Source: a virus
Taxonomy: Duplodnaviria > Heunggongvirae > Uroviricota > Caudoviricetes
Length of the DNA stretch: 64,000 nt
IMG/VR virus record: IMGVR_UViG_2703718869_000013
Span: 1 to 64,000 of that record
Reading direction: 5' to 3' (one strand)
In this document: positions 9,369 to 59,421 of the stretch, one piece after another
Numbering within the stretch: the stretch's first letter is position 1
Layout: each line of letters begins with the position of its first letter
Position numbers and translations under genes: made by a program
The notes under the pieces: generated by a model
What the model saw: the letters and a program-made list of their open reading frames with translations, nothing else
What the model was told of the DNA's origin: nothing
Database searches by the model: none

Positions 9369-9424
9369 TTTTGTTTTCTCGTGAAGAACCTACTTAAGGG
9401 CAGAATGATACATTTCACAATCAA

Positions 9425-9441
9425 AATTGCACTAATAATTT
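9425..9441 (+). promoter_or_regulatory. C1-type operator (15/17) in divergent intergenic region
   Basis: attgcactaataatttt. Confidence 0.45.
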
Positions 9442-9514
9442 TCTTTTATTGAGTTAAATATTCAACAAATGACTAGCGGTAGAATCACCATCATCTATTT
9501 CTGGCAGGCTGACT

Positions 9515-38310: not shown

Positions 38311-38336
38311 AAAGCTCCTACGGGAGCTTTTTTGTG
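38311..38336 (+). terminator. intrinsic terminator
   Basis: aaagctcc-tacg-ggagcttt followed by tttt. Confidence 0.65.
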
Positions 38337-38374
38337 CTTAAATTATGCCGGTATAGCGAAATTTTGAGCATATT

Positions 38375-38671
38375 ATGGAAATTGATTTTTCATACTCTCC
38401 TGAAACGATAGAACGAAGATTCGAAATAATTGGATGCAAAACTATTTCAGAGGAGCATTATTGGATTCTCTATGATGCCAATACATGGTTATGTGCCTTA
38501 GCAGAATGTCGGCCATCGTTATGTGCAGGGGAGGGAGGACTTCGACATAAGGTGCTGGCTACACTTGAAGTGAACACGTTACGATATTGGTGTGTCGAAA
38601 TACTTAGGGATAACAAAGAATTACATTTATTATTGCTGAATAAGTGTGCGCCTCTGCGCAGGAAAGCATAA
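38375..38671 (+). CDS. hypothetical Cys-containing protein (98 aa) in AT-rich cargo island
   Basis: ORF track; followed by hairpin gaacccga...tcgggttc plus T-run at about 38796..38835. Confidence 0.3.
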   Translation: MEIDFSYSPETIERRFEIIGCKTISEEHYWILYDANTWLCALAECRPSLCAGEGGLRHKVLATLEVNTLRYWCVEILRDNKELHLLLLNKCAPLRRKA

Positions 38672-38837
38672 GAAAACCCAACCGCCATACTGGAATTATC
38701 AGAAGAATATGTGCGGAAAGTTATAGCTAGCTATTGAAAAGCTAAAGTAGATCGGTTAGATTTACTTTACTCATCTACCATGCGTAGAAAGAGCGATCGA
38801 ACCCGATACATAGCAATATGTGTCGGGTTCAGCTTTT

Positions 38838-39317
38838 TTATGTCCCAAGTGCTCTTTTTCTGCTTTGTTTGAGTGTTCTGATTTTACTGTCATAGGTTAC
38901 AACATAGGCTGTTTTGAGAAGCCAATAGTCTCTACGTGCGGATAGCACAACAACGTAGTTTTCACACTCGTTCCAGATTACCCACTCTTCAGTTGGTCCT
39001 CGTCTTTCAGACCAACATGATATATCGCAATGGTCATAATTCCTTATCATATGCGCGATCCAGCGGATCCGCTTACACCGTTCAAGATCTGGTATTCGTT
39101 CTTCTTCTATTTTTCCCTCTGATACTAAATGCCAAAATCCGAACTCTTTCCCATCATATTCCGGTGAATAACGTAATCGAACAGGGAGACCCTTAAACGT
39201 TATATTAGAGATTAAAATATCTTCTCTAACAACATCATATACATCGTCTATATACTCTTGCCAACTTCCATTGAAGTACAATAAATCTGGCATTTGAAGC
39301 ATCAGCGAGCCTCCCAC
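38838..39317 (-). CDS. hypothetical protein (159 aa), partner of DUF3800-like gene
   Basis: 16-nt overlap with upstream gene; AT-rich codon usage unlike flanking phage genes. Confidence 0.45.
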   Translation of the reverse strand: MGGSLMLQMPDLLYFNGSWQEYIDDVYDVVREDILISNITFKGLPVRLRYSPEYDGKEFGFWHLVSEGKIEEERIPDLERCKRIRWIAHMIRNYDHCDISCWSERRGPTEEWVIWNECENYVVVLSARRDYWLLKTAYVVTYDSKIRTLKQSRKRALGT

Positions 39318-40006
39318 ACGAAAATATTAAATTTACTTTCTGTTGGAAGAGTGCTTTTTAGTAACTCCCTGTTTGTATGTGATTTTATCCTGTTTATGAC
39401 TTGGATTTTTCCCGCGTTGCTATTCATTCCTCGATGAACGTAGCCTAACGCACCAATGAAAAGATCCGTTAGCTGCAATTGTTGCACTTCATGAGATCGT
39501 ATATGTTGAATTCTGTTTATCGACTCATGATTGTAATCATAGCGATCATTGTGAAGAACTCCTCTTAATTTCTCAATTTTTTCAATACCTAAAGTATCTT
39601 TTATATCTAGGTAGATATTGTATGTGTTGTTACTTTCTATTATGTTTTTTAAGACATAAAAAAACATCTTATAATAGAAAGTATTATGATCTTGATGGAA
39701 TCGAGCATGGTCCAGTTGCTCTTTATCAGGAACAACAACACCTCTAAAGCGCAATGCTGGGTTGCTGAAGAAGTAATCTACGACCTCTAAGTAAAATTCA
39801 ACTTTGGACGCAGATACTTTAGTCCACTTGATTTCGAAATCAGGTTTTAAATTGTGTTTTAATTTTAATCCCTTGATGTCTCTAGCAATTTTTTTTGTGA
39901 TAGTGCCAGGACACCAAAGCGCACCCAATACCATGACTTTATTATGATCATTTAGTAGGTGACAGGATTCATCGCAGAATACATTAAATGTTCTTCGGTT
40001 CAACAT
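39302..40006 (-). CDS. DUF3800-like protein (234 aa)
   Basis: N-terminal FCDESCH (DESG-like) and C-terminal SHEVQQLQLTDLFIGAL motifs recalled for DUF3800. Confidence 0.45.
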   Translation of the reverse strand: MLNRRTFNVFCDESCHLLNDHNKVMVLGALWCPGTITKKIARDIKGLKLKHNLKPDFEIKWTKVSASKVEFYLEVVDYFFSNPALRFRGVVVPDKEQLDHARFHQDHNTFYYKMFFYVLKNIIESNNTYNIYLDIKDTLGIEKIEKLRGVLHNDRYDYNHESINRIQHIRSHEVQQLQLTDLFIGALGYVHRGMNSNAGKIQVINRIKSHTNRELLKSTLPTESKFNIFVWEAR

Positions 40007-40174
40007 GTTAACTCCACTTATTGTTAGGTAGAATTGTCCGTTAGTTGTTTATTAATTGCAATAATTGGACGTTCTGATTTGCTAACTACGTCATCTTACC
40101 AGGACGCCTATGAGTTTTCCTCATGGCAAACTAGAGGTGTTGAAAGTATGCATGGTTATAATTAGAGCAATCTA

Positions 40175-41020
40175 TCACCCTCTGAATCCTACCGGTATAC
40201 CCCATTGTTCGTTATCTTTATTTTTGGCTAATACCGCATTAAGAGCTTCGTTTACCGTCATGCAATGCGGTAGATTATCGAAGTTTGATATCCAGCCAAT
40301 ATCAGGAGAACGCTTGTTCTTCAGGTAAGCATATTTCCGCGCTGCCGCCTCTACTTTCTGCTTGAACTCATGTTTTTGAGCGCGTTTTTTGGATAACCGC
40401 AGATTGTCAGCCTTTGCTTTTGCTTCAGCGATCCATGAAGTCAATTTTTTGAGTCTGGTCGTTCCGGCACCGCCGGAAACTGATCTTTTTGTTTTTTTAA
40501 CTTGTGACTTCTTATTCTTTATTGCCACGTCATCCTGACAGGGGGAGGGGGTATCATTTTGACATGGGGGTGTGGATAAAAAATTAAATAAAGCCAATGT
40601 CTTAGCGAGAACAGCTTTAACCTTGGTTGCCGCTGAAGAGATCTTTAATTTGCTTTCAATCAGCGCATTTTTGGCTTGTTGTGCGAAGGCCAAAAAGGAT
40701 GGTGTAAACCGGTACAGGTTAGCGCGACGTTCACGGTGATCGCCGATAACAATCTCTACAGACAGAATTCCTTTGTTTACAGCTTCACGGAATGCACGAA
40801 CGACGGTTGATTGGCTATAACCAGTTTCTGCCGCGATCAGGCGGTGAGGCTTGTGAATGAAGTATTCACTGGTTGTTGCCGCTAGATTTGCACATTGCGA
40901 CAGGATATGCCCGGCGCTACGAGATAGACCGGAGTGTGTTACAAAGCAGGCCAATTCATAGCCAGAAAAAGTAAAATCGCTCATCGTTATACAGCTCAGG
41001 AAAGTGACTTTAGCCAGCAT
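40175..41020 (-). CDS. repL: lytic replication initiator RepL
   Basis: 281 aa, immediately downstream of kilA under a C1 operator, as in the P1 kilA-repL operon. Confidence 0.6.
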   Translation of the reverse strand: MLAKVTFLSCITMSDFTFSGYELACFVTHSGLSRSAGHILSQCANLAATTSEYFIHKPHRLIAAETGYSQSTVVRAFREAVNKGILSVEIVIGDHRERRANLYRFTPSFLAFAQQAKNALIESKLKISSAATKVKAVLAKTLALFNFLSTPPCQNDTPSPCQDDVAIKNKKSQVKKTKRSVSGGAGTTRLKKLTSWIAEAKAKADNLRLSKKRAQKHEFKQKVEAAARKYAYLKNKRSPDIGWISNFDNLPHCMTVNEALNAVLAKNKDNEQWGIPVGFRG

Positions 41021-41850: not shown

Positions 41851-41923
41851 TTTTTCTCCAAATTTGCATCAACCTTCAATCACCAGCTCGAAATGGTGAT
41901 TCTTTGCACTTAGAAAACGAAAT

Positions 41924-41940
41924 TTATTAGAGCAAATTTT
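41924..41940 (-). promoter_or_regulatory. C1-type operator (16/17) upstream of kilA-repL
   Basis: aaatttattagagcaaa. Confidence 0.55.
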
Positions 41941-42014: not shown

Positions 42015-43058
42015 TTAACCTATTGCTACTGGTTTTAACAAACCAGCATCAAGTAGCTTGCGAGTTAACCACTGCTGGCCTTTACCCGTTAATTGGGGCG
42101 TCAGCCGTATCTGGTAGCCATTTTCATCATCCAGCACCACTTCTTTCACCGTGAAATACCCGGCGTTAATGTACTGCTGGCGCGGTACGTTTTTGCGCGC
42201 ACCAAAAGCCATGAGAATGCCGTTCTGGCGCAACCATGAGAAAAGGGCGTTTTGCTTAAGTCCAACGACCTTTGCAAAGTTCCCGATCAGGATTCCATTA
42301 GCCGCTGATACCCGGTCGGCAAAATCGACTTTAGGGGCTGCGGCCACCAGCTGTTGTTCCAACTGCATTTTCTGTTCTGCCAACTCGGCAGCCAGGCGTA
42401 GAGCTTCTGGTAATGTTTGGGGGATCGATGGGGTAGGGGAGTTTGCCTGCTGCAATTCTTCCAGTTTGTCGATCAGCGAACGGCGGACCGCTTTTGACTC
42501 GCGCGCGGCGACTCGCAAGGCTTGTTTGTAGGTCATGGTGATGACCTCAAAAGAGCGCCCAGCCCTTGTGCCATGGGATTTTGCACTTTTTGTGTAAAAT
42601 TCACCTTCAAGTTCATCGAGTATTTTTTCGATGAATTTATTGTTTCTAACCTCTGGTTCTCCACATAACTTGCGTGCCTCATTGACCATCTTCAACAATG
42701 TTTGGCTGTCGATTGTGTCTCCGGTGTTGGGGATGACATTCACGGCTGGTGTTGGCGTAGCTGACGTAACAGGTGCTGGTTTCTCAACATTCAAATTTTT
42801 ACCGGTCACTCTATGTGCCTCCTTTCTCATTTCTGCTGCCACCGTTGCGTAACGTAGACGTCCTTGTTCAATCAAATAATCCCTGATCTCGGCTATCAGT
42901 AGCCTGTTGATCACAGCCTTATCTGTTCGGGTATAAAAACGCCTGGTTATCATGAAATAGTTGGCAATTGCGCCGGGGATCTCCCGTGTCGGCATACAGG
43001 CAGTATGCAGGGCGATTGCTTCGGCTATGTCATTACGGGTGACGAGAGGTTTTTTCAT
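42015..43058 (-). CDS. ant: antirepressor Ant (immI copy 2)
   Basis: 347 aa, paralog of 14337..15371 with near-identical C-terminal half. Confidence 0.65.
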   Translation of the reverse strand: MKKPLVTRNDIAEAIALHTACMPTREIPGAIANYFMITRRFYTRTDKAVINRLLIAEIRDYLIEQGRLRYATVAAEMRKEAHRVTGKNLNVEKPAPVTSATPTPAVNVIPNTGDTIDSQTLLKMVNEARKLCGEPEVRNNKFIEKILDELEGEFYTKSAKSHGTRAGRSFEVITMTYKQALRVAARESKAVRRSLIDKLEELQQANSPTPSIPQTLPEALRLAAELAEQKMQLEQQLVAAAPKVDFADRVSAANGILIGNFAKVVGLKQNALFSWLRQNGILMAFGARKNVPRQQYINAGYFTVKEVVLDDENGYQIRLTPQLTGKGQQWLTRKLLDAGLLKPVAIG

Positions 43059-43276
43059 AAAACCCCCTGAACGTCGGCAGAGAAGGGGAGGTTCCAGTAA
43101 CTAAGTGAATTGCGCGAGTTAGTTGAAAAACGGGCAGTAAAAATGCAGGGGCCATCAGGCAATTGAGAGCGTGCTTCGTCTTCTGTTGCTGCGATAACGA
43201 AGTGATAGTGGTGTTTTTTACAGGAATAGAAACGCCAGATGAATTCTTGGCGTGCGCAAGGATTGGCATTAACCAT
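43055..43276 (-). CDS. icd: Icd-like small protein (73 aa), copy 2
   Basis: paralog of 15368..15589. Confidence 0.45.
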   Translation of the reverse strand: MVNANPCARQEFIWRFYSCKKHHYHFVIAATEDEARSQLPDGPCIFTARFSTNSRNSLSYWNLPFSADVQGVL

Positions 43277-43490
43277 AGTTACGGCCTCACTAACAGGTTT
43301 AACAACCTGCTACCCGCTGTCAAACAGGTGGCAGGACGTGACAGGGTTGACAGACTGGCGTTAGTGAAACCAGCAGGCCGAAGCCTCCCCATCACGCCCC
43401 ACCATAATTCGGGCGTAACGCGGTTTACGGACACAAAAATACCGCAATATCGGAAATCTGCGGTTGTCCGCACTAACATTCAGGCTGTCA
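43275..43490 (-). ncRNA. c4: c4-like antisense RNA region (immI copy 2), approximate bounds
   Basis: sites 43287..43294, 43360..43366, 43471..43478 carry compensatory changes relative to copy 1. Confidence 0.5.
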
Positions 43491-43589
43491 AACCTGGTCG
43501 CAGAATTTGCTACGACGGCAGAACTATAAGCCTGAACGATTAAAAGGTCAATATGATGCGAAAAGATAGCATTCGCGACTTAAAAATAC

Positions 43590-43606
43590 AAATTTATTAG
43601 AGCATT
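43590..43606 (-). promoter_or_regulatory. C1-type operator (16/17) upstream of immI copy 2
   Basis: aaatttattagagcatt. Confidence 0.5.
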
Positions 43607-43700
43607 ATTTGTGCAATAAATGCACAAATGGATCTAATAACCTCTTTTTTTTAAAGGCGAAAATATGTACCCTAAATGGGTTATAAGGCAGGTGAGATTA

Positions 43701-43832
43701 TAATGAGAAGACTATTACTACCGTTATTATTTATGGCCGGGACTGTTAATGCAGCATCAAGCGTAAAGGAGATTTGTACCGATTATACGAAATACCTTGG
43801 GCACGTTTACGCCTTTGCGATCAATGACTATT
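43701..43832 (+). CDS. small secreted peptide (43 aa precursor with signal peptide)
   Basis: MRRLLLPLLFMAGTVNA signal-like N-terminus; not in ORF track (under 60 aa). Confidence 0.3.
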
Positions 43833-43855
43833 AATCCATGCGTAGGAGTGGATTT

Positions 43856-44173
43856 ATGCTGATTCGTTTGTTTTTAGTGCTTTCCTTTTTAACATTTAAT
43901 GTTTTTGCTGATGAAGTTGACTTTTCGAAGGTAGATTGCAATTCAGTGGAAACAAGAAAAGCTCTTATTGAAGAATATAACGAAATATTATCGTCATATG
44001 GAATAACAGTGGTTGATTCTTATAATCAAAAAACTATTCAGAAAGGAATAAATAAACTGGTTTGTTATGGGGTTTACCAATATTCAGATGGCTCTTCGGA
44101 GTATGTTATTTATAAAGCATACCCAAATAGTCTTGGTGAATTGATTAGTGAGTTTAAACCGATTAATGAGTGA
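43856..44173 (+). CDS. secreted protein (105 aa precursor)
   Basis: AGGAGTG RBS; N-terminal signal peptide MLIRLFLVLSFLTFNVFA. Confidence 0.45.
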   Translation: MLIRLFLVLSFLTFNVFADEVDFSKVDCNSVETRKALIEEYNEILSSYGITVVDSYNQKTIQKGINKLVCYGVYQYSDGSSEYVIYKAYPNSLGELISEFKPINE

Positions 44174-44180
44174 ATGGAAA

Positions 44181-44960
44181 ATGAAATTATTTAATGTAAT
44201 AACATTTTGTTGTGCTATTTTTGCTGGAAGCGCGATAGCTGATAATAAATTGCCAGATTGGCTTTCTACTTCAAAAAAAGATTATGATTTAGTAAGGGTG
44301 TTCTATTTGTCTGGATTTGCCTCGAAAGCAATGAATAATCAATTTGGTTATCATTTTCCATCTGAGTTGGTTAATGATTTTAAAGATAATGAATTTGCCG
44401 CTCAGGAAAAATGGAATACAATTTCAATTGTATATGGTGAAATAAAATCCATAAGAATGGTGAATAATGAACCAATTGTAGAGTTATTTACTCCAGGGGA
44501 AAATGCAACGCCACTAAATTATATCAAATTGAAAGTGTTGGATTCAAAACAAAACTCTCTGTTAAAACTAAAAAAAGGGGATGATATATATGCAGTGTGC
44601 TCCGGTGCTAATTTTAGGTTAGTGCCAATTCTGAGCAACTGCACTCCAGCAACTGACGTCATTGATGCTGCACTCTCTTTTTCTGGTGAATATATGTTCC
44701 CTGCTTTTGATTCTTTTTCACCTACTAAGCAAAACGTCAAATATATATTCACAAATCAAGATCCTGTTCAGATGATGAATTTTATAGGGTACCTATCCTT
44801 AGTCGATACAACGAAGGATAAGAATAAAATGGATATGGTTCGTAAGTGTACGCCTTGGAAGCCGGAATGTTCACAACAATTCGTTGATGTAATGGAAGGA
44901 TTTGATAACATCATGTATAAATATGAGAGGGAATTTAAAAATTACATAGAATTAAAATAG
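44181..44960 (+). CDS. secreted protein (259 aa precursor)
   Basis: signal peptide MKLFNVITFCCAIFAGSAIA; AT-rich. Confidence 0.45.
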   Translation: MKLFNVITFCCAIFAGSAIADNKLPDWLSTSKKDYDLVRVFYLSGFASKAMNNQFGYHFPSELVNDFKDNEFAAQEKWNTISIVYGEIKSIRMVNNEPIVELFTPGENATPLNYIKLKVLDSKQNSLLKLKKGDDIYAVCSGANFRLVPILSNCTPATDVIDAALSFSGEYMFPAFDSFSPTKQNVKYIFTNQDPVQMMNFIGYLSLVDTTKDKNKMDMVRKCTPWKPECSQQFVDVMEGFDNIMYKYEREFKNYIELK

Positions 44961-44993
44961 TATTTGAAATGATAGTCAATTTAAGTTTTAACA

Positions 44994-45024
44994 AAACGCC
45001 CATTAAAGGGCGTTTTATTGTTTT
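44994..45024 (+). terminator. intrinsic terminator
   Basis: aaacgccc-attaaa-gggcgttt then tattgtttt. Confidence 0.6.
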
Positions 45025-45183
45025 ACTCAAAACAACCTGACTCAAAACAACCTGATTGTGTGATAACCATATGATACTCCTCATTCCATCTACACTACCT
45101 ACTCTAACTTAATGATACCATATTACTCCCGGACGGCAATATTCCCACTCAATGGACAAATGACTACTCGTAGAATCGGGTAA

Positions 45184-45774
<591 letters not shown>

Positions 45775-45784
45775 GGGGGCTGAT

Positions 45785-46396
45785 ATGGGGCTTAATGTTG
45801 CTTCAGTAAAGTCTTATGTATCTTCGGCATTAACGACGACATTATTTGGCTCCGGCGTTGGTGAGCGGGAAGTTGGTAAGCTGACGTCAATCATCATGAA
45901 CAAAATGCTGTTCGCGCAAGGATGGCAGTTCTCTGTCGAAGTTGATGGTCTGGAGGGGGCAGACTTCTTTGCTAAAGACATTACCTACCACGATTACAGC
46001 ATCGAATATGAAACGATTAAAATCGGCGGAGGGAATATCCTTCAGCCAACGGAGCGTTCGCCTGGGCAGATAACAATGATGGTCAGGGACACTGTTGATG
46101 GCCTCGTTTTGGACTGGTTTAAGACGGCAAAAAGTCGGGTGATCAATCCTGACGGTACCGGGAACATACCATCTAAATATTTGCTCAATGTGCGTATTTA
46201 TCGGTTGCTGTCTTCCGGCTTAACCAAACTGGAAAATGAGATGACGGTATTCCCGGTCACTACCGGCGATGTCACCTATGCGCGGGATCAGGTTACGGAA
46301 TTTAAGTCATTCCCAATGACCTTCGCATTGCACAGCACGTTTAACCAATCCTCAAGTTCTTTGGCTTCCCTTCTGGGCTTTAGTTTTTCTCTTTGA
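45785..46396 (+). CDS. putative tail tube protein (203 aa)
   Basis: size and position upstream of the tape-measure-like gene. Confidence 0.4.
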   Translation: MGLNVASVKSYVSSALTTTLFGSGVGEREVGKLTSIIMNKMLFAQGWQFSVEVDGLEGADFFAKDITYHDYSIEYETIKIGGGNILQPTERSPGQITMMVRDTVDGLVLDWFKTAKSRVINPDGTGNIPSKYLLNVRIYRLLSSGLTKLENEMTVFPVTTGDVTYARDQVTEFKSFPMTFALHSTFNQSSSSLASLLGFSFSL

Positions 46397-53852: not shown

Positions 53853-56702
53853 ATGAATGACGTTACAGTTGTTACATCGGTTACTTACCCATCACCCGAG
53901 TCGTTGGCTCTGGTTGCTGATGTGCAATACCACGAACCATATCTGTCAGCCGCGCTAAACCGAAAATTCAGGGGGATTGTTGACCCGGGATTTTATGCCG
54001 GTTTCTTACCTAAGCCTGGCGGTGGGATGAACCTGTTAATCACCTCAGTGGATGGAGATAAAACCGCAGGCGCGGCGTCGGTGGATATTGGTGAATTCTA
54101 CCAGGTAACTATTCAGCAATGTACGGATATTCCTCTTGCACTTAGTGCAGGCAAGAAATATGCAATTGTGCTGAAGGGAAGATACCTCCTTGGAGAGGAT
54201 ACCTATCAGGTTAATACCGCGTCACATATTCATGCGGCTGAATTTGTTACCAGAACCTATACCGATTCATATCAGTTAGGAGATGGGGAGCTGCTTGTTT
54301 GTACGGTGAATATCCCTGCTGGAGTATCAGCCATTACCCAGGAGATGATTGATACATCCGAGCGTATTAACCGCACGATCGGCATTGATATCTCAGACTC
54401 TGTAACCAGTAGCAGAAGTGATGTTGCTGCAAGTTCGCTGGCAGTTAAAAAAGCCTACGATCTGGCGAACAGTAAGTATACGGCGCAGGATGCAAGCACA
54501 ACGCAAAAGGGATTAGTTCAGCTCAGTAGCGAAACTAACAGCGACAGCGAAACAATGGCGGCTACCCCTAAAGCCGTTAAGTCTGTAAAAGATCTTGCTG
54601 ATACCAAAGCGCCAATAGAAAGCCCGAGTCTGACAGGAACGCCAACCGCGCCGACGGCAGCGCAAGGTACAAATAGCACGCAGATCGCAAATACAGCCTT
54701 TGTTAAGGCAGCTATAACGGCACTTATCAACGGTGCACCTGGCACACTGGATACGCTTAAAGAAATAGCTGCTGCGATCAATAACGACCCGAATTTCAGC
54801 ACAACTATCAACAATGCTCTGGCTCTTAAAGCTCCTTTAGCAAGTCCTGCATTAACGGGAATACCTACTGCGCCTACCGCTGCACAGGGTACGAATAACA
54901 CGCAGATTGCTACGACCGCTTATGTAAGAGCTGCCATATCCGCATTGGTTGGTTCATCACCAGAAGCTCTTGATACCCTGAATGAGCTTGCCGCAGCACT
55001 TGGTAATGACCCGAACTTTGCGACAACAATGACAAATGCGCTGGCAGGCAAACAGCCTCTGGATGCAACTTTAACCGCGCTTGCTGGTCTTGCTACAGGC
55101 GCAAATAAATTGCCGTACTTTACCGGTACAGACACTATTTCTCAGACTGACTTAACGTCAGTCGGTCGCGATATTCTGGCCAAAACAAGCGTCCTTGCTG
55201 TTATCCAATACCTTGATTTAAGAGAACTTGGCACAAGCGGTGAAAAGATCCCCCTGTTGAGCACGGCTAACAAATGGGGTGCACGCCAGACTTTCAACGG
55301 TGGGATCACCGGGGCGCTGACAGGGAACGCCGACACCGCGACGAAATTAAAAACAGCCATAAACATTAATGGCGTCAGATTCGATGGTTCGGCTGACATT
55401 AATATCAATACTCTGGTATCTCGCGGTCGCGTAACGGCCCTAGAGGCGAATGCACAGGGAACATCCGGGATTCAGCTGTATGAGGCATACAACAATGGCT
55501 ACCCTTCCCCCTATGGCAATGTGCTTCACCTTAAAGGTGCCACCGCTGCTGGCGAAGGTGAGTTATTCATTGGCTGGAGTGGCACGAGCGGTGACCATGC
55601 GCCCGTACATATCCGTTCGCGGCGTGATACTGATTCTGCCAACTGGTCTGAATGGGCGCAGGTCTATACGTCAAAAGATTCAATTCCCGGCGTCAATGCC
55701 AAAGGGGATCAGGACACCTCTGGTAATGCGGCTACAGCGACCAAGTTGCAGACAGCATGTACTATCAATGGCGTCTCGTTTGATGGTTCTACTGATATCA
55801 CTTTAACCGCTGCGCATGTTGCTGCTTTTGCCAGAAGAGCAACGGATACGTATGCCGATGCGGATGGGGGCGTTCCCTGGAATGCCGAATCAGGCGCTTA
55901 CAATGTCATTCGCTCTGCCGACAGCTATATTCTGGTTAACTTCTATACCGGAGTCGGAAGTTGCCCGACCTTGCAGATGAAGGCGCATTACAGAAATGGT
56001 GGTCTGTTCTACCGTTCTTCAAGAGACGGTTATGGTTTTGAGGAAGACTGGGCAGAAGTTTATACCTCGAAAAATCTTCCACCAGAAAGCTACCCAGTCG
56101 GCGCACCAATCCCGTGGCCATCAGATACCGTTCCGTCTGGTTATGCCCTGATGCAGGGGCAGACTTTTGACAAATCTGCATACCCGAAACTTGCAGCGGC
56201 TTATCCGTCAGGCGTTATTCCTGATATGCGTGGCTGGACGATTAAGGGCAAGCCCGGCAGTGGTCGTGCCGTATTGTCTCAGGAACAGGACGGCATTAAA
56301 TCGCACACCCACAGCGCCAGCGCATCCAGTACGGATTTGGGGACGAAAACCACATCGTCGTTTGATTACGGTACTAAAACGACCAGTTCATTTGATTACG
56401 GCACAAAAACTACGAATAGCGCTGGAAATCATTCACACAATATACCTGTTGGTCACACTGGCGCGGGGAATGGTGTATCAGCCGGTTTTAACGCTGCGTT
56501 AGGTACTGGTACCACGTCGAGCGCAGGCGAGCATGCTCACAATGTATATATCGGTGCCCATAACCACACTATCGGCATTGGTGCTCATGCCCATTCTGTC
56601 ATTATTGGTCCCCACGGACACACCATCACCGTTAACGCTACGGGTAACGAAGAAAACACCGTAAAAAACATCGCATTTAACTATATTGTGAGGCTTGCAT
56701 AA
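53853..56702 (+). CDS. tail fibre protein (about 949 aa) with repetitive C-terminal receptor-binding region
   Basis: repeats LTG(T/I)[11 protein letters not shown](S/N)TQIA(N/T)TA and [10 protein letters not shown] (two exact copies plus [10 protein letters not shown]), His-rich HxH C-terminus; ATG at 53853. Confidence 0.7.
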
Positions 56703-57280
56703 TGACATTCAGAATGAGTGAACAATCACGGACCATAAAAATTTATAATCTACTGGCTGGAACCAATGAGTTTATTGGTGAAGGTGATGCATACATTCCA
56801 CCTCATACAGGTCTGCCTGCAAACAGTACCGATATTGCCCCGCCAGATATTCCGGCTGGCTTCGTGGCCGTTTTCAACAGTGATGAGGCATCGTGGAATC
56901 TCGTTGAAGACCATCGGGGAAAAACCGTCTATGACGTGGCTTCCGGCGACGCGTTATTTATTTCTGAACTTGGCCCATTACCGGAAAATGTCACCTGGTT
57001 ATCCCCGGAAGGGGAGTTTCAGAAGTGGAACGGCACAGCCTGGGTGAAAGATGCAGAAGCAGAAAAACTGTTCCGGATCCGGAAGGCGGAAGAAACAAAA
57101 AACAGCCTGATGCAGATGGCCAGTGAGCATATTGCGCCACTTCAGGATGCCGTAGATTTGGATATTGCGACGGAGGAAGAGGCATCGTTACTGACTGCAT
57201 GGAAGACATATCGGGTATTGTTGAATCGTGTTGATACAACAGTAGCATCGGATGTTGAGTGGCCAGTCGCCCCGCAATAA
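56702..57280 (+). CDS. tail fibre assembly protein
   Basis: 192 aa, typical Tfa-like protein directly after the fibre gene. Confidence 0.7.
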
Positions 57281-57323
57281 AAGGATAAAGCCATCGATAG
57301 AAATATTGATGGCTTCATGTACT

Positions 57324-57827
57324 CTATTTATACAATACAACACCGCTCTTTTTTGTTATATATGTGCAGTTCGATGGTATATCTTTATTTATAAAAGACA
57401 TTGCACCTATTTTTACATTATCCCCAATTTTACGTGATAATCCAATGATGCAACAATTAGCTCCGATATCAACGTTATTACCAATTTTTACTCTTGAACC
57501 AGGCATGTCACCATCTACCTGTCCAATGGTAGTATTCTGTCGCAAAACCAGATTTTCACCAGCATCAACAGCAAAATGAACAACAATTCCAGTATGATGG
57601 GGAATTGTTAAACCTTTTCCAATATTTGCGCCCAATCCAATTTCGCAACCAAATCTGTTAATTATATTATTGTTTAACTTTCTGGCTGCTTTCTTATGTA
57701 ATTTATTGCCATTAATATACATTTCATTAGCCAGTCTCCACCAGAAAAGGAAATTCCGATTGCGCTGCTTCTTCTCTCTTAATAGTCGCCAAACATCCAT
57801 TTTTTCACGCCTGATGATTTCAGCCAT
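57324..57827 (-). CDS. hexapeptide-repeat acyltransferase (serine acetyltransferase/WcaB-like)
   Basis: left-handed beta-helix hexapeptide repeats (GCEIGLGANIGKG, IGNNVDIGANCCI, IGDNVKIGA); AT-rich; start set at internal MAEII. Confidence 0.55.
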   Translation of the reverse strand: MAEIIRREKMDVWRLLREKKQRNRNFLFWWRLANEMYINGNKLHKKAARKLNNNIINRFGCEIGLGANIGKGLTIPHHTGIVVHFAVDAGENLVLRQNTTIGQVDGDMPGSRVKIGNNVDIGANCCIIGLSRKIGDNVKIGAMSFINKDIPSNCTYITKKSGVVLYK

Positions 57828-58604
57828 CCAGTAGCTCAATAGAGCTTTTGAATTCCCGAAGATGACAAAGTGAATAGCTATTAAGTAACATAACATATTG
57901 CAACTGCCTATATTTTTTGGTTTCTATGTTTATATATTGACATTATAATTAAAACAATAATCATCAGTGTGTTACTGCGTTCCTGCTAAACTAAATCAAC
58001 GCACAATGTAAACACAAATGTTAATTTTAAACTGAGCGCTAAAGGGATGTCAATATTGTATTGATAATGAGTTGCAAGATTGCCAACACTTTCTATATTT
58101 TTGGATGTAATAATTTATATTTTATCTATTTAGTGTTTCTTTAGACTTATTAAGGATGTCATTATTAATTTATGGCTTGCCATTTCTATACATATCTGTT
58201 AAAAATTTTGACTTGTTTGTTGAAAATAGATTTAATTGATTGGTTTATTTTTTACATGACGCTCTTTAATATAGCTTCAGGTATATATAAGCACAATGCA
58301 TTATTTCCAGAGGAAATTAACAAAATTGTTAGCTCTTATTTGTTGAGCTTATAGATATTAATTAAGGCCCGATTCCGGGCCTTTCCTCATTCCGGCTTTT
58401 CGGGAAACGTTACTGGAAGGATGGAGGTATCCGTGGATTCGACTTTCTGCGCATAGAGAATCCACTCGGTTAATTTTTGTTTACCCTGAACGGAAATAAT
58501 GCCTAGCCGTAACTGTGAGTCCCAGAGCTGAGTTTTATCCCTGACGAGCTGTAGCAGGCTTTGCTTTTCTTTTTCCGCTTGTTGTCTTTGCATGACCGGT
58601 TGAG

Positions 58605-58622
58605 AAGTTACTTTGCATACCA
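58605..58622 (+). promoter_or_regulatory. putative P1-type late promoter upstream of lydA (AAGTTACTT, 4 nt, TACCAT)
   Basis: same palindrome and spacing as at 32902. Confidence 0.35.
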
Positions 58623-58651
58623 TTACCTCCTGACAACGTAGGAGGGAACTT

Positions 58652-58981
58652 GTGCTTGACACACAGGAATTAGCTCCAGTTGCTATTGCGCTCCTGCTTT
58701 CAGTAATTGGTGGGATAGGCACGTTCCTGATGGATGTCCGAGACGGTCGCCAGTCTGGCAATTTGTTGGGATTGGTTACGGAGATCTTTGTTGCAGTGAC
58801 AGCTGGCGCGGTGGCGTACCTATTGGGGCAACACGAGGGCTGGGAGTTATCAATTACGTACTTAATGGTAACGATAGCCAGCAATAACGGTCATGAGGTG
58901 ATTTCAGGGATGAAACGAGTGAATATCGATAGCATTCTGAATGTTCTTACAAGTTTGGTGAAAAAGGGAGGTGGGAAATGA
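58652..58981 (+). CDS. lydA: holin-like membrane protein
   Basis: GTG start with GGAGGG RBS; two or three TM helices in 109 aa; first gene of lyd-dar operon. Confidence 0.5.
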   Translation: MLDTQELAPVAIALLLSVIGGIGTFLMDVRDGRQSGNLLGLVTEIFVAVTAGAVAYLLGQHEGWELSITYLMVTIASNNGHEVISGMKRVNIDSILNVLTSLVKKGGGK

Positions 58982-59421
58982 TTGGCTGGGGTGTATGCGC
59001 TCTTGCGTTAGCCTTAGCCGATCGCTATTTGCTAAAACGCAAGGACATCACGCATTTAGAACTTGGTGATGTGGAAATTAAACCGGGTTTCATCCGGGTG
59101 CCGTTCAAATACCGGTCTAAATTCCCGTTTTTGCGCGGCGCAACGGTCAGATATTGGATCCGCGATGTTCAGAAGCCAACGACAGTGATTGAAGGCGAAC
59201 AACGTTGTCTGACGTCGGCTGAACAGGGCGAAAACAGTGAATGGTTGTACATACCCACTGAATATATGGGTAAAGGAGAACGGCTGTGGCATTTCAACGT
59301 CATGGTTACGCATGGCGACTCGTTCATTAACCCGTTGTATCGGATTTTCCCTGTTACTCAGCAAATCCGCAGAAGTTACGTAATAAATCTCGCACAGGAT
59401 GTGTCAGATGACGAAAAATAA
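58978..59421 (+). CDS. lydB: LydB-like lysis regulator (putative antiholin)
   Basis: 147 aa, N-terminal TM segment, coupled to lydA. Confidence 0.4.
   Translation: MIGWGVCALALALADRYLLKRKDITHLELGDVEIKPGFIRVPFKYRSKFPFLRGATVRYWIRDVQKPTTVIEGEQRCLTSAEQGENSEWLYIPTEYMGKGERLWHFNVMVTHGDSFINPLYRIFPVTQQIRRSYVINLAQDVSDDEK

Follow-up and report, generated by a model that had tools for sequence, protein, structure and literature searches.

rlfAB of a P1-type phage-plasmid: a mobile two-gene cassette in an exchangeable slot, and a candidate abortive-infection module

The AT-rich island between the tail genes and repL in the virus record IMGVR_UViG_2703718869_000013 (IMG/VR; Caudoviricetes) is almost certainly the rlfAB locus of phage P1 and, at the same time, the candidate defence system that the PADLOC database calls PDC-M04. 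The window that we analysed is a stretch of 64,000 nucleotides (positions 1 to 64,000 of the record), in which an original prediction, made from the letters alone, had marked positions 38340-40170 as a candidate for an undescribed defence or abortive-infection module. The island is a known exchangeable accessory slot of a P1-type phage-plasmid, reaching from the terminator of the tail operon to repL, and its rlfA-rlfB core is a horizontally mobile two-gene cassette of the same kind as PDC-M04. The pair is most likely a toxin-antitoxin-like, nucleic-acid-targeting abortive-infection module, a reading to which we assign a probability of about 0.5.

Identity of the island and its two proteins

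Over 3 kb around the island, nucleotide identity amounts to 97.2% with P1 (NC_005856) and to 99.6% with the P1-like phage JL22, which is the closest match. The gene order bplB-pmgF-rlfB-rlfA-Orlf-repL is the same here and in P1, and individual features are 94.9-98.8% identical to their P1 counterparts. At the protein level, two amino acids differ in RlfA, two in RlfB and six in PmgF, and the C1 operator Orlf is identical. The locus is the one that holds rlfA/rlfB/pmgF in P1 (rapA/rapB in P7), with no substantive difference. Given this identity in sequence and operator, the statement in the original prediction that P1 carries other genes here was mistaken, as P1 has the same rlfA/rlfB/pmgF. The idea of a swapped cargo slot was right in that the slot is variable, the present allele being carried by 98 of 681 P1-like plasmids, but nothing has been swapped relative to P1, whose own genes these are (97%).

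Neither is the system undescribed. Its genes received their names when the P1 genome was annotated, rlfA-rlfB-pmgF has been listed as the low-GC (guanine-cytosine) "variable region 5" of P1-like phage-plasmids (PMC9603915), and the replacement of the rlf region in individual plasmids was noted by earlier work. The pair is also present in PADLOC, so its reading as a defence candidate is likewise already public. RlfA matches PDC-M04A (PDLC04353) over its full length with an E-value of 2.2e-95 and 316.5 bits, and RlfB matches PDC-M04B (PDLC04355) at 1.1e-51, together with 11 further B models; among all PADLOC models, the pair matches PDC-M04 only. The PDC systems are 145 untested candidates that were chosen for their embedding in BREX, DISARM or type I restriction loci (Payne et al. 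2024), and PDC-M04 is cassette CAS_00034 in the guilt-by-embedding supplement, with a count of 679. As in the island, A and B of PDC-M04 are adjacent on one strand. In the literature searched, no paper linking PDC-M04 to P1 was found. P1 is among the most used model phages, and rlfA and rlfB have stayed under the placeholder name "replication-linked function" since its annotation; tying them to PDC-M04 turns a vague annotation into a cheap and direct experiment in E. coli.

RlfA matches the Pfam family DUF3800 (PF12686) with 53.1 bits, against a cut-off of 21, over profile positions 1-148 of 149, and the 234-amino-acid protein was thus correctly described as DUF3800-like. It has an RNase HII-like fold with conserved carboxylates: D12, E13, D134 and D181 are invariant, and Q178 of the QxxD motif is nearly so (37 sequences for D12, E13, Q178 and D181). 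The motifs of DUF3800 have been defined as an N-terminal DE and a C-terminal QxxD (PMC7736814). A search by sequence for solved relatives of RlfA gave noise only (E >= 0.14), and Pfam finds in it no helix-turn-helix (HTH), ribbon-helix-helix (RHH) or AbrB DNA-binding domain. No activity of any DUF3800 protein is reported in the literature examined; a role for RlfA would give the first functional handle on a domain that recurs beside retrons and RNA-targeting CRISPR systems. Additionally, a Cys/His cluster flanks the catalytic D12-E13, with C11 nearly invariant and C15, H16 and C32 invariant. This C11/C15/H16/C32 cluster does not belong to the canonical active site of RNase H; it may bind a metal or have a redox role.

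The second gene, rlfB, most likely starts at ATG 39302. This codon has GGGAGG upstream, overlaps the stop codon of rlfA by one nucleotide (TGATG) and gives a protein of 154 amino acids, as annotated in P1. The mechanical open reading frame (ORF) begins at GTG 39317 and has 159 amino acids, so that the overlap announced in the original prediction stands, but the length given there probably does not. RlfB, a small protein of the alpha+beta type, bears the signature FWH...R...RCxR..W...W; its near-invariant residues among 150 diverse members are P5, F56, W57, H58, R69, R75, C76, R78, W81 and W97. At 50% identity its family falls into 1,765 clusters, made up entirely of standalone proteins of about 155-180 amino acids. 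It had been called a protein of no recognisable family, and in fact neither RlfB nor any of the 150 diverse relatives belongs to a Pfam family; RlfB has no NCBIfam match either, nor any PDB sequence match at E <= 10.

Weak fold matches of RlfB include the tRNA anticodon nuclease colicin D. A Foldseek search returned nothing significant, with HigB1 and colicin D recurring among the weak matches, and a RelE/colicin D-like nature of RlfB is consequently treated as a lead and no longer as a finding. Compared with the RelE/ParE and the colicin D / CdiA-CT RNase toxins, RlfB has no sequence-profile relationship to either group and, in contrast to RelE/ParE and colicin D, it has an extra N-terminal helical part that bears most of the conserved residues. 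Furthermore, unlike in type II systems with toxins such as RelE/ParE, its upstream partner is enzyme-like and no DNA-binding antitoxin is found. We regard RlfB as a putative RNase-type effector. Its His and several Arg would be compatible with a metal-independent RNase, and H58, R69, R75 and R78 are the candidate functional residues. The public names "oxidoreductase" (NCBI) and "replication protein" (PHROG 16230) find no support in domain, fold or context, and look like propagated annotation errors.

Pairing and genomic surroundings of the cassette

The pair was followed through 80 RlfA loci, retrieved by a scan with one genome per species that covered many phyla, each about 50% identical to RlfA. 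An RlfB homolog lies directly downstream on the same strand at all 80 loci, and overlaps or abuts rlfA at 78. When distant RlfB relatives (about 30% identity) were taken as the starting point, a DUF3800 gene was found upstream in every case except one, a locus disrupted by an insertion sequence (IS). The two genes, which the original prediction had joined in one operon, are therefore a conserved unit from whichever side they are approached.

The surroundings of the pair are those of defence and of mobile elements. HsdM, HsdS or HsdR is encoded within four genes at 40 of the 80 loci, and on both sides at 11; at 19 of 72 loci, the gene directly upstream encodes HsdS. The embedding in type I restriction-modification (RM) loci by which PDC-M04 was selected is thereby re-derived independently. 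Genes for Mrr, GmrSD, a type III-like methylase, a DUF1156 methylase accompanied by an SNF2-PLD protein, DUF4062 and YhcG also recur nearby. As for mobile elements, the closest enterobacterial relatives of the island's pair both lie beside an integrase: one, 87% identical, at the border of a Rac-like prophage, the other, 68% identical, in an integrative mobilisable element at guaA; the cassette thus does occur on mobile elements other than P1. The proposal of a candidate defence module is well founded as regards context (type I RM, Mrr, GmrSD, DISARM-like), while the defence function itself is a prediction only. With respect to the embedding rule of PDC-M04, the P1 copy departs in that it occupies a phage-plasmid accessory slot and not the inside of a restriction system.

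Some of the related loci have features of their own. In a Nitrospiraceae type I restriction operon (L005, 10000-13206), PDC-M04 and then PDC-M03 stand in tandem between hsdS and hsdR, the PDC-M03 matches having E-values of 9e-107 (A) and 7e-79 (B). In the E. coli integrative element at guaA (L089-L091), a gene at 9372-10448 (-) directly after the rlfAB-like pair codes for a 358-amino-acid protein with no Pfam or PADLOC match. On a Bacteroidales contig (L072, 65-140), a group II intron domain (63 bits, gathering score 40) lies just upstream of the rlfA homolog. Apart from this intron, Rfam scans gave chance-level matches only, and no relevant RNA motif was found in 37.5-41.5 kb of the window (permissive threshold) or in 20 related loci (gathering scores).

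Proposed function and its alternatives

We consider the chances about even that rlfAB protects its carrier against phages or other invaders. The abortive-infection reading is supported by the strict pairing, by the association with defence genes and mobile elements, and by the nuclease-type folds of the two proteins, which for RlfB is tentative. DUF3800 is moreover found repeatedly beside immune effectors that cleave RNA (retron type VII, Cas12a2/a3 and Cas13), and one of the other alleles of the slot carries the toxin hokD. The low GC content of the island, carriage by only 14% of P1-like plasmids and the dispensability of the genes also count in its favour. Regarding the latter, knockdown by CRISPR interference (CRISPRi) in P1 gave efficiencies of plating (EOP) of 1.3 for rlfA, 0.88 for rlfB and 1.2 for pmgF, which indicates that the three genes are dispensable for lytic growth on the laboratory host. 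A mild phenotype that might be read from a low second column of those data was rejected, as this column is the standard deviation. Additionally, one study found that E. coli was protected by four of eight HEC/PDC candidates from the same catalogue. What the analysis establishes is the identity with P1 rlfAB, the strict pairing, the surroundings in defence loci and mobile elements, and the RNase H fold of RlfA with its conserved carboxylates; any activity against phages, the choice of the toxin between the two proteins, an RNase function of RlfB, the triggering signal and the time of expression are inferred.

In the mechanism that we envisage, RlfA, an RNase HII-like enzyme in which the acidic active site is intact, would recognise and/or cut an RNA:DNA hybrid of the invader or, alternatively, a similar replication or transcription intermediate. 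The overlapping stop and start codons would keep RlfB in a fixed ratio to RlfA, and RlfB would be a small His/Arg-rich RNase-type effector that stops translation once the control exerted by RlfA is lifted. In P1, rlfAB follows repL directly, and no terminator separates the two; it could therefore be transcribed by read-through out of the C1-controlled lytic replicon, in addition to transcription from its own weak promoter. This specific assignment of sensor to RlfA and effector to RlfB is tentative, and we think it rather improbable in its details. Equally doubtful is the broader proposal that RlfAB represents a new class of two-nuclease abortive infection, in which a DUF3800 sensor of RNA:DNA hybrids or R-loops licenses a RelE/colicin D-like RNase. 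If it were true, the same sensor logic could explain the presence of DUF3800 beside retron type VII, Cas12a2/a3 and Cas13 kinase systems, and what P1 would gain from having rlfAB behind its lytic replicon is the exclusion of rival phages or a means of retaliation once restriction has been disabled.

Several observations weigh against a protective role. No paper naming PDC-M04 or testing a DUF3800 pair against phages was found in the literature searched, and in their native host two further PDC candidates were inactive. RlfA does not have the DNA-binding domain of classical type II antitoxins, and the P1 copy of rlfAB adjoins no restriction system. Furthermore, rlfA/B have been reported to be co-induced with repL early in P1vir lytic infection, and the operon may be off in lysogens, contrary to what is predicted for a host defence encoded by a prophage. 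Taking together the adjacency to repL without a terminator, the C1 operator and the co-induction with repL, rlfAB may act in the lytic cycle of P1 itself rather than in the lysogen. Even if no anti-phage effect were found, the result would still be useful as a calibration of guilt-by-embedding predictions.

The defining features of three known groups of systems were compared with those of the pair, and the differences found exclude it from all of them. PrrC/EcoprrI and RloC are anticodon nucleases embedded in type I restriction loci, and relatives of rlfAB are found at the corresponding position within hsd operons. A reserve mechanism that is set off once restriction has been disabled can plausibly serve as a working analogy, and rlfAB may work like PrrC/RloC where it lies inside such operons. 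However, PrrC and RloC have an ABC-ATPase fused to the anticodon nuclease, whereas rlfAB has no such domain according to Pfam and PADLOC and consists of two proteins, one of them RNase H-like; moreover, the copies in P1, in the prophage and in the integrative elements have no adjacent hsd locus, the flanks in the window being repL and the tail genes.

DUF3800 has been described with retron type VII, with Cas12a2/a3 (TPR-DUF3800) and with Cas13 (Csx32; the Cas13-associated kinase system). These partners share with RlfA the Pfam domain, the RNase H2-like fold and the DE and QxxD motifs, and they likewise accompany nucleic-acid-based immunity. In contrast to the retron type VII proteins, which have DEED and no Q, RlfA retains DEDD. 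There is no reverse transcriptase ORF in 36.5-42.5 kb and no Rfam match to a noncoding RNA in 37.5-41.5 kb, and unlike the loci of the CRISPR partners, this one holds no CRISPR array or TPR domain. As for classical type II toxin-antitoxin systems, these have a small DNA-binding antitoxin upstream, a position that is taken here by an RNase H-like protein of 234 amino acids.

An addiction function is nevertheless conceivable, in which the main task of rlfAB, as a toxin-antitoxin pair, would be not to stop phages but to stabilise its carriers, namely the plasmid prophage of P1, restriction operons and integrative elements. Two translationally coupled genes with a putative toxin-fold protein in second place, the presence of the pair on plasmids, prophages and integrative elements, and the hokD toxin in the same slot of other P1-like plasmids all fit with it. 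Against this stand the enzyme-like character of RlfA, with its conserved catalytic tetrad, which is not that of a small DNA-binding antitoxin, and the combination of about 50% identity across phyla with insertion in hsd operons, which is the pattern of defence on which guilt-by-embedding relies. P1 also already has an addiction system, phd-doc. We therefore hold addiction to be unlikely, bearing in mind that it overlaps with abortive infection because many toxin-antitoxin pairs double as abortive-infection systems.

The name "replication-linked function" suggests instead an accessory of P1 lytic replication, for instance one in which an RNase H-like enzyme processes the transcript or R-loop by which oriL inside repL is activated. 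The RNase H fold of RlfA, the position of the operon directly downstream of repL/oriL with no terminator, the C1 operator upstream and the co-induction of rlfA/B with repL during P1vir infection would agree with this. Nonetheless, the strict pairing holds at 80 loci away from repL-type replicons, most of them in restriction operons; 86% of the P1-like plasmids that retain repL are missing the pair; and, according to notes in the P1 annotation, the lytic replicon segment in P1-based cloning vectors stops just before rlfA. As most repL-bearing P1-like plasmids do without the pair and its knockdown causes no loss of plating, a role in replication is very unlikely. The least probable of the alternatives, and one that we give hardly any weight, is counter-defence, that is, an activity of mobile elements against host immunity such as the destruction of RNA:DNA hybrids (retron multicopy single-stranded DNA, msDNA) or of nucleic-acid signals. 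The pair is phage-borne and reportedly expressed in lytic growth, DUF3800 is linked to retrons, and retron msDNA might in principle be open to attack by RNase H-like enzymes. However, half of the sampled loci are co-oriented in or beside type I restriction operons of bacteria and further defence genes of the host, a placement typical of defence and not of anti-defence genes, and in retron type VII the DUF3800 protein is the retron's own partner.

The exchangeable slot and its surroundings

Comparison with P1-like alleles that do not have the island places the exchanged segment at 38334..40160, almost exactly the span 38340-40170 proposed originally. On the left (38333/38334), homology to these alleles stops at 38333, just after the terminator of the tail operon; on the right (40160/40161), the edge falls inside Orlf. 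The backbone half of this operator, ATTGCTCTAAT, has 11 bases that match the C1 consensus and is kept in every allele, while the other six nucleotides are allele-specific: TATAAC with rlfAB and CTGGAG with mokW/hokD, the site being 11-12/17 in both (the window; L002, L083 and L085). Instead of regulating the cargo, Orlf may be a half-site retained for the sake of repL, or it may mark a recombination junction.

Among the 681 P1-like plasmids that match the flanks, the 98 with the rlfAB allele make up 14%. Of 5,426 complete E. coli genomes, 121 have this allele, nearly always on plasmids. Other alleles of the slot hold the hok-family toxins hokD/mokW, an Ail/Lom protein, small unnamed proteins and IS elements, including IS421. 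Examples of such alternative cargo are genes in L083 for proteins of 198 amino acids (1064-1660, +) and 81 amino acids (1843-2088, -), neither of which has a PADLOC match or a convincing Pfam match, and a gene in L002 (3209-3364, -).

Table 1. Features of the island and its immediate flanks (window coordinates)
Feature	Position	Strand	Basis or remark
Intrinsic terminator of the bplB/tail operon	38311..38336	+	8-bp GC-rich stem and T-run; hairpin proper 38311..38330
pmgF, 98-amino-acid Cys-rich ORFan	38375..38671	+	ORF
14-bp hairpin between the convergent pmgF and rlfB	38799..38830	.	Terminator-like on the + strand; directly 3' of the rlfB stop on the - strand
rlfB (PDC-M04B), 154 amino acids from ATG 39302	38838..39302	-	GGGAGG Shine-Dalgarno, TGATG overlap, P1 annotation
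rlfA (PDC-M04A), 234 amino acids, DUF3800	39302..40006	-	ORF, Pfam
Predicted sigma-70 promoter PrlfA of P1 (TTGCAA, 17-nucleotide spacer, GACAAT)	40033..40061	-	P1 annotation transferred by coordinate map
C1 operator Orlf (formerly Op55), ATTGCTCTAATTATAAC, 12/17 to consensus	40155..40171	-	Same as the annotated P1 operator
repL, initiator of lytic replication, with oriL inside; flanking backbone on the upstream side of rlfA	40175..41020	-	P1 annotation, 98.2% identity

The features in Table 1 agree for the most part with what had been read from the letters. The three ORFs given originally, 39302..40006 (-), 38838..39317 (-) and 38375..38671 (+), were all recovered, and the terminator ascribed to the structural operon is indeed a hairpin followed by a T-run. 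The operator-like 12/17 site exists, as the Orlf of P1, but ten bases away from the 40145..40161 at which it had been placed. No terminator-like site was detected between repL and rlfA (40007..40174). The promoter PrlfA is a weak, predicted one (8/12) and falls under the threshold of the promoter scan of the window.

The convergent gene, pmgF, has 94.9% nucleotide identity with pmgF of P1. Its product has no Pfam, NCBIfam or PADLOC match, and corresponds to PHROG 7349, in which no function is assigned. A role for pmgF as a third component was considered and rejected: it is absent at all 80 rlfAB loci outside P1 and its homologs are found in P1-like elements only, so that it is a neighbour and not a part of the module.

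Matches to the C1 operator consensus with up to three mismatches number 12 in the window, against 0.4 expected by chance, and mark the C1 regulon; sites at 21532-21548, 41920-41936 and 43590-43606 are examples. Orlf, with five mismatches, lies outside this set.

The low GC content ascribed to the island was borne out, at 37.4% against 47.2% for the whole window (z = -3.0), with 1.3% of equal-sized windows being this low. Two more low-GC stretches appear in 1.8-kb windows, at 42751-45981 (minimum 34.8%) and at 56401-59281 (minimum 37.9%). If the window is collinear with P1 throughout, these would correspond to the sim region and the tail-fibre/cin region, both of them published variable regions.

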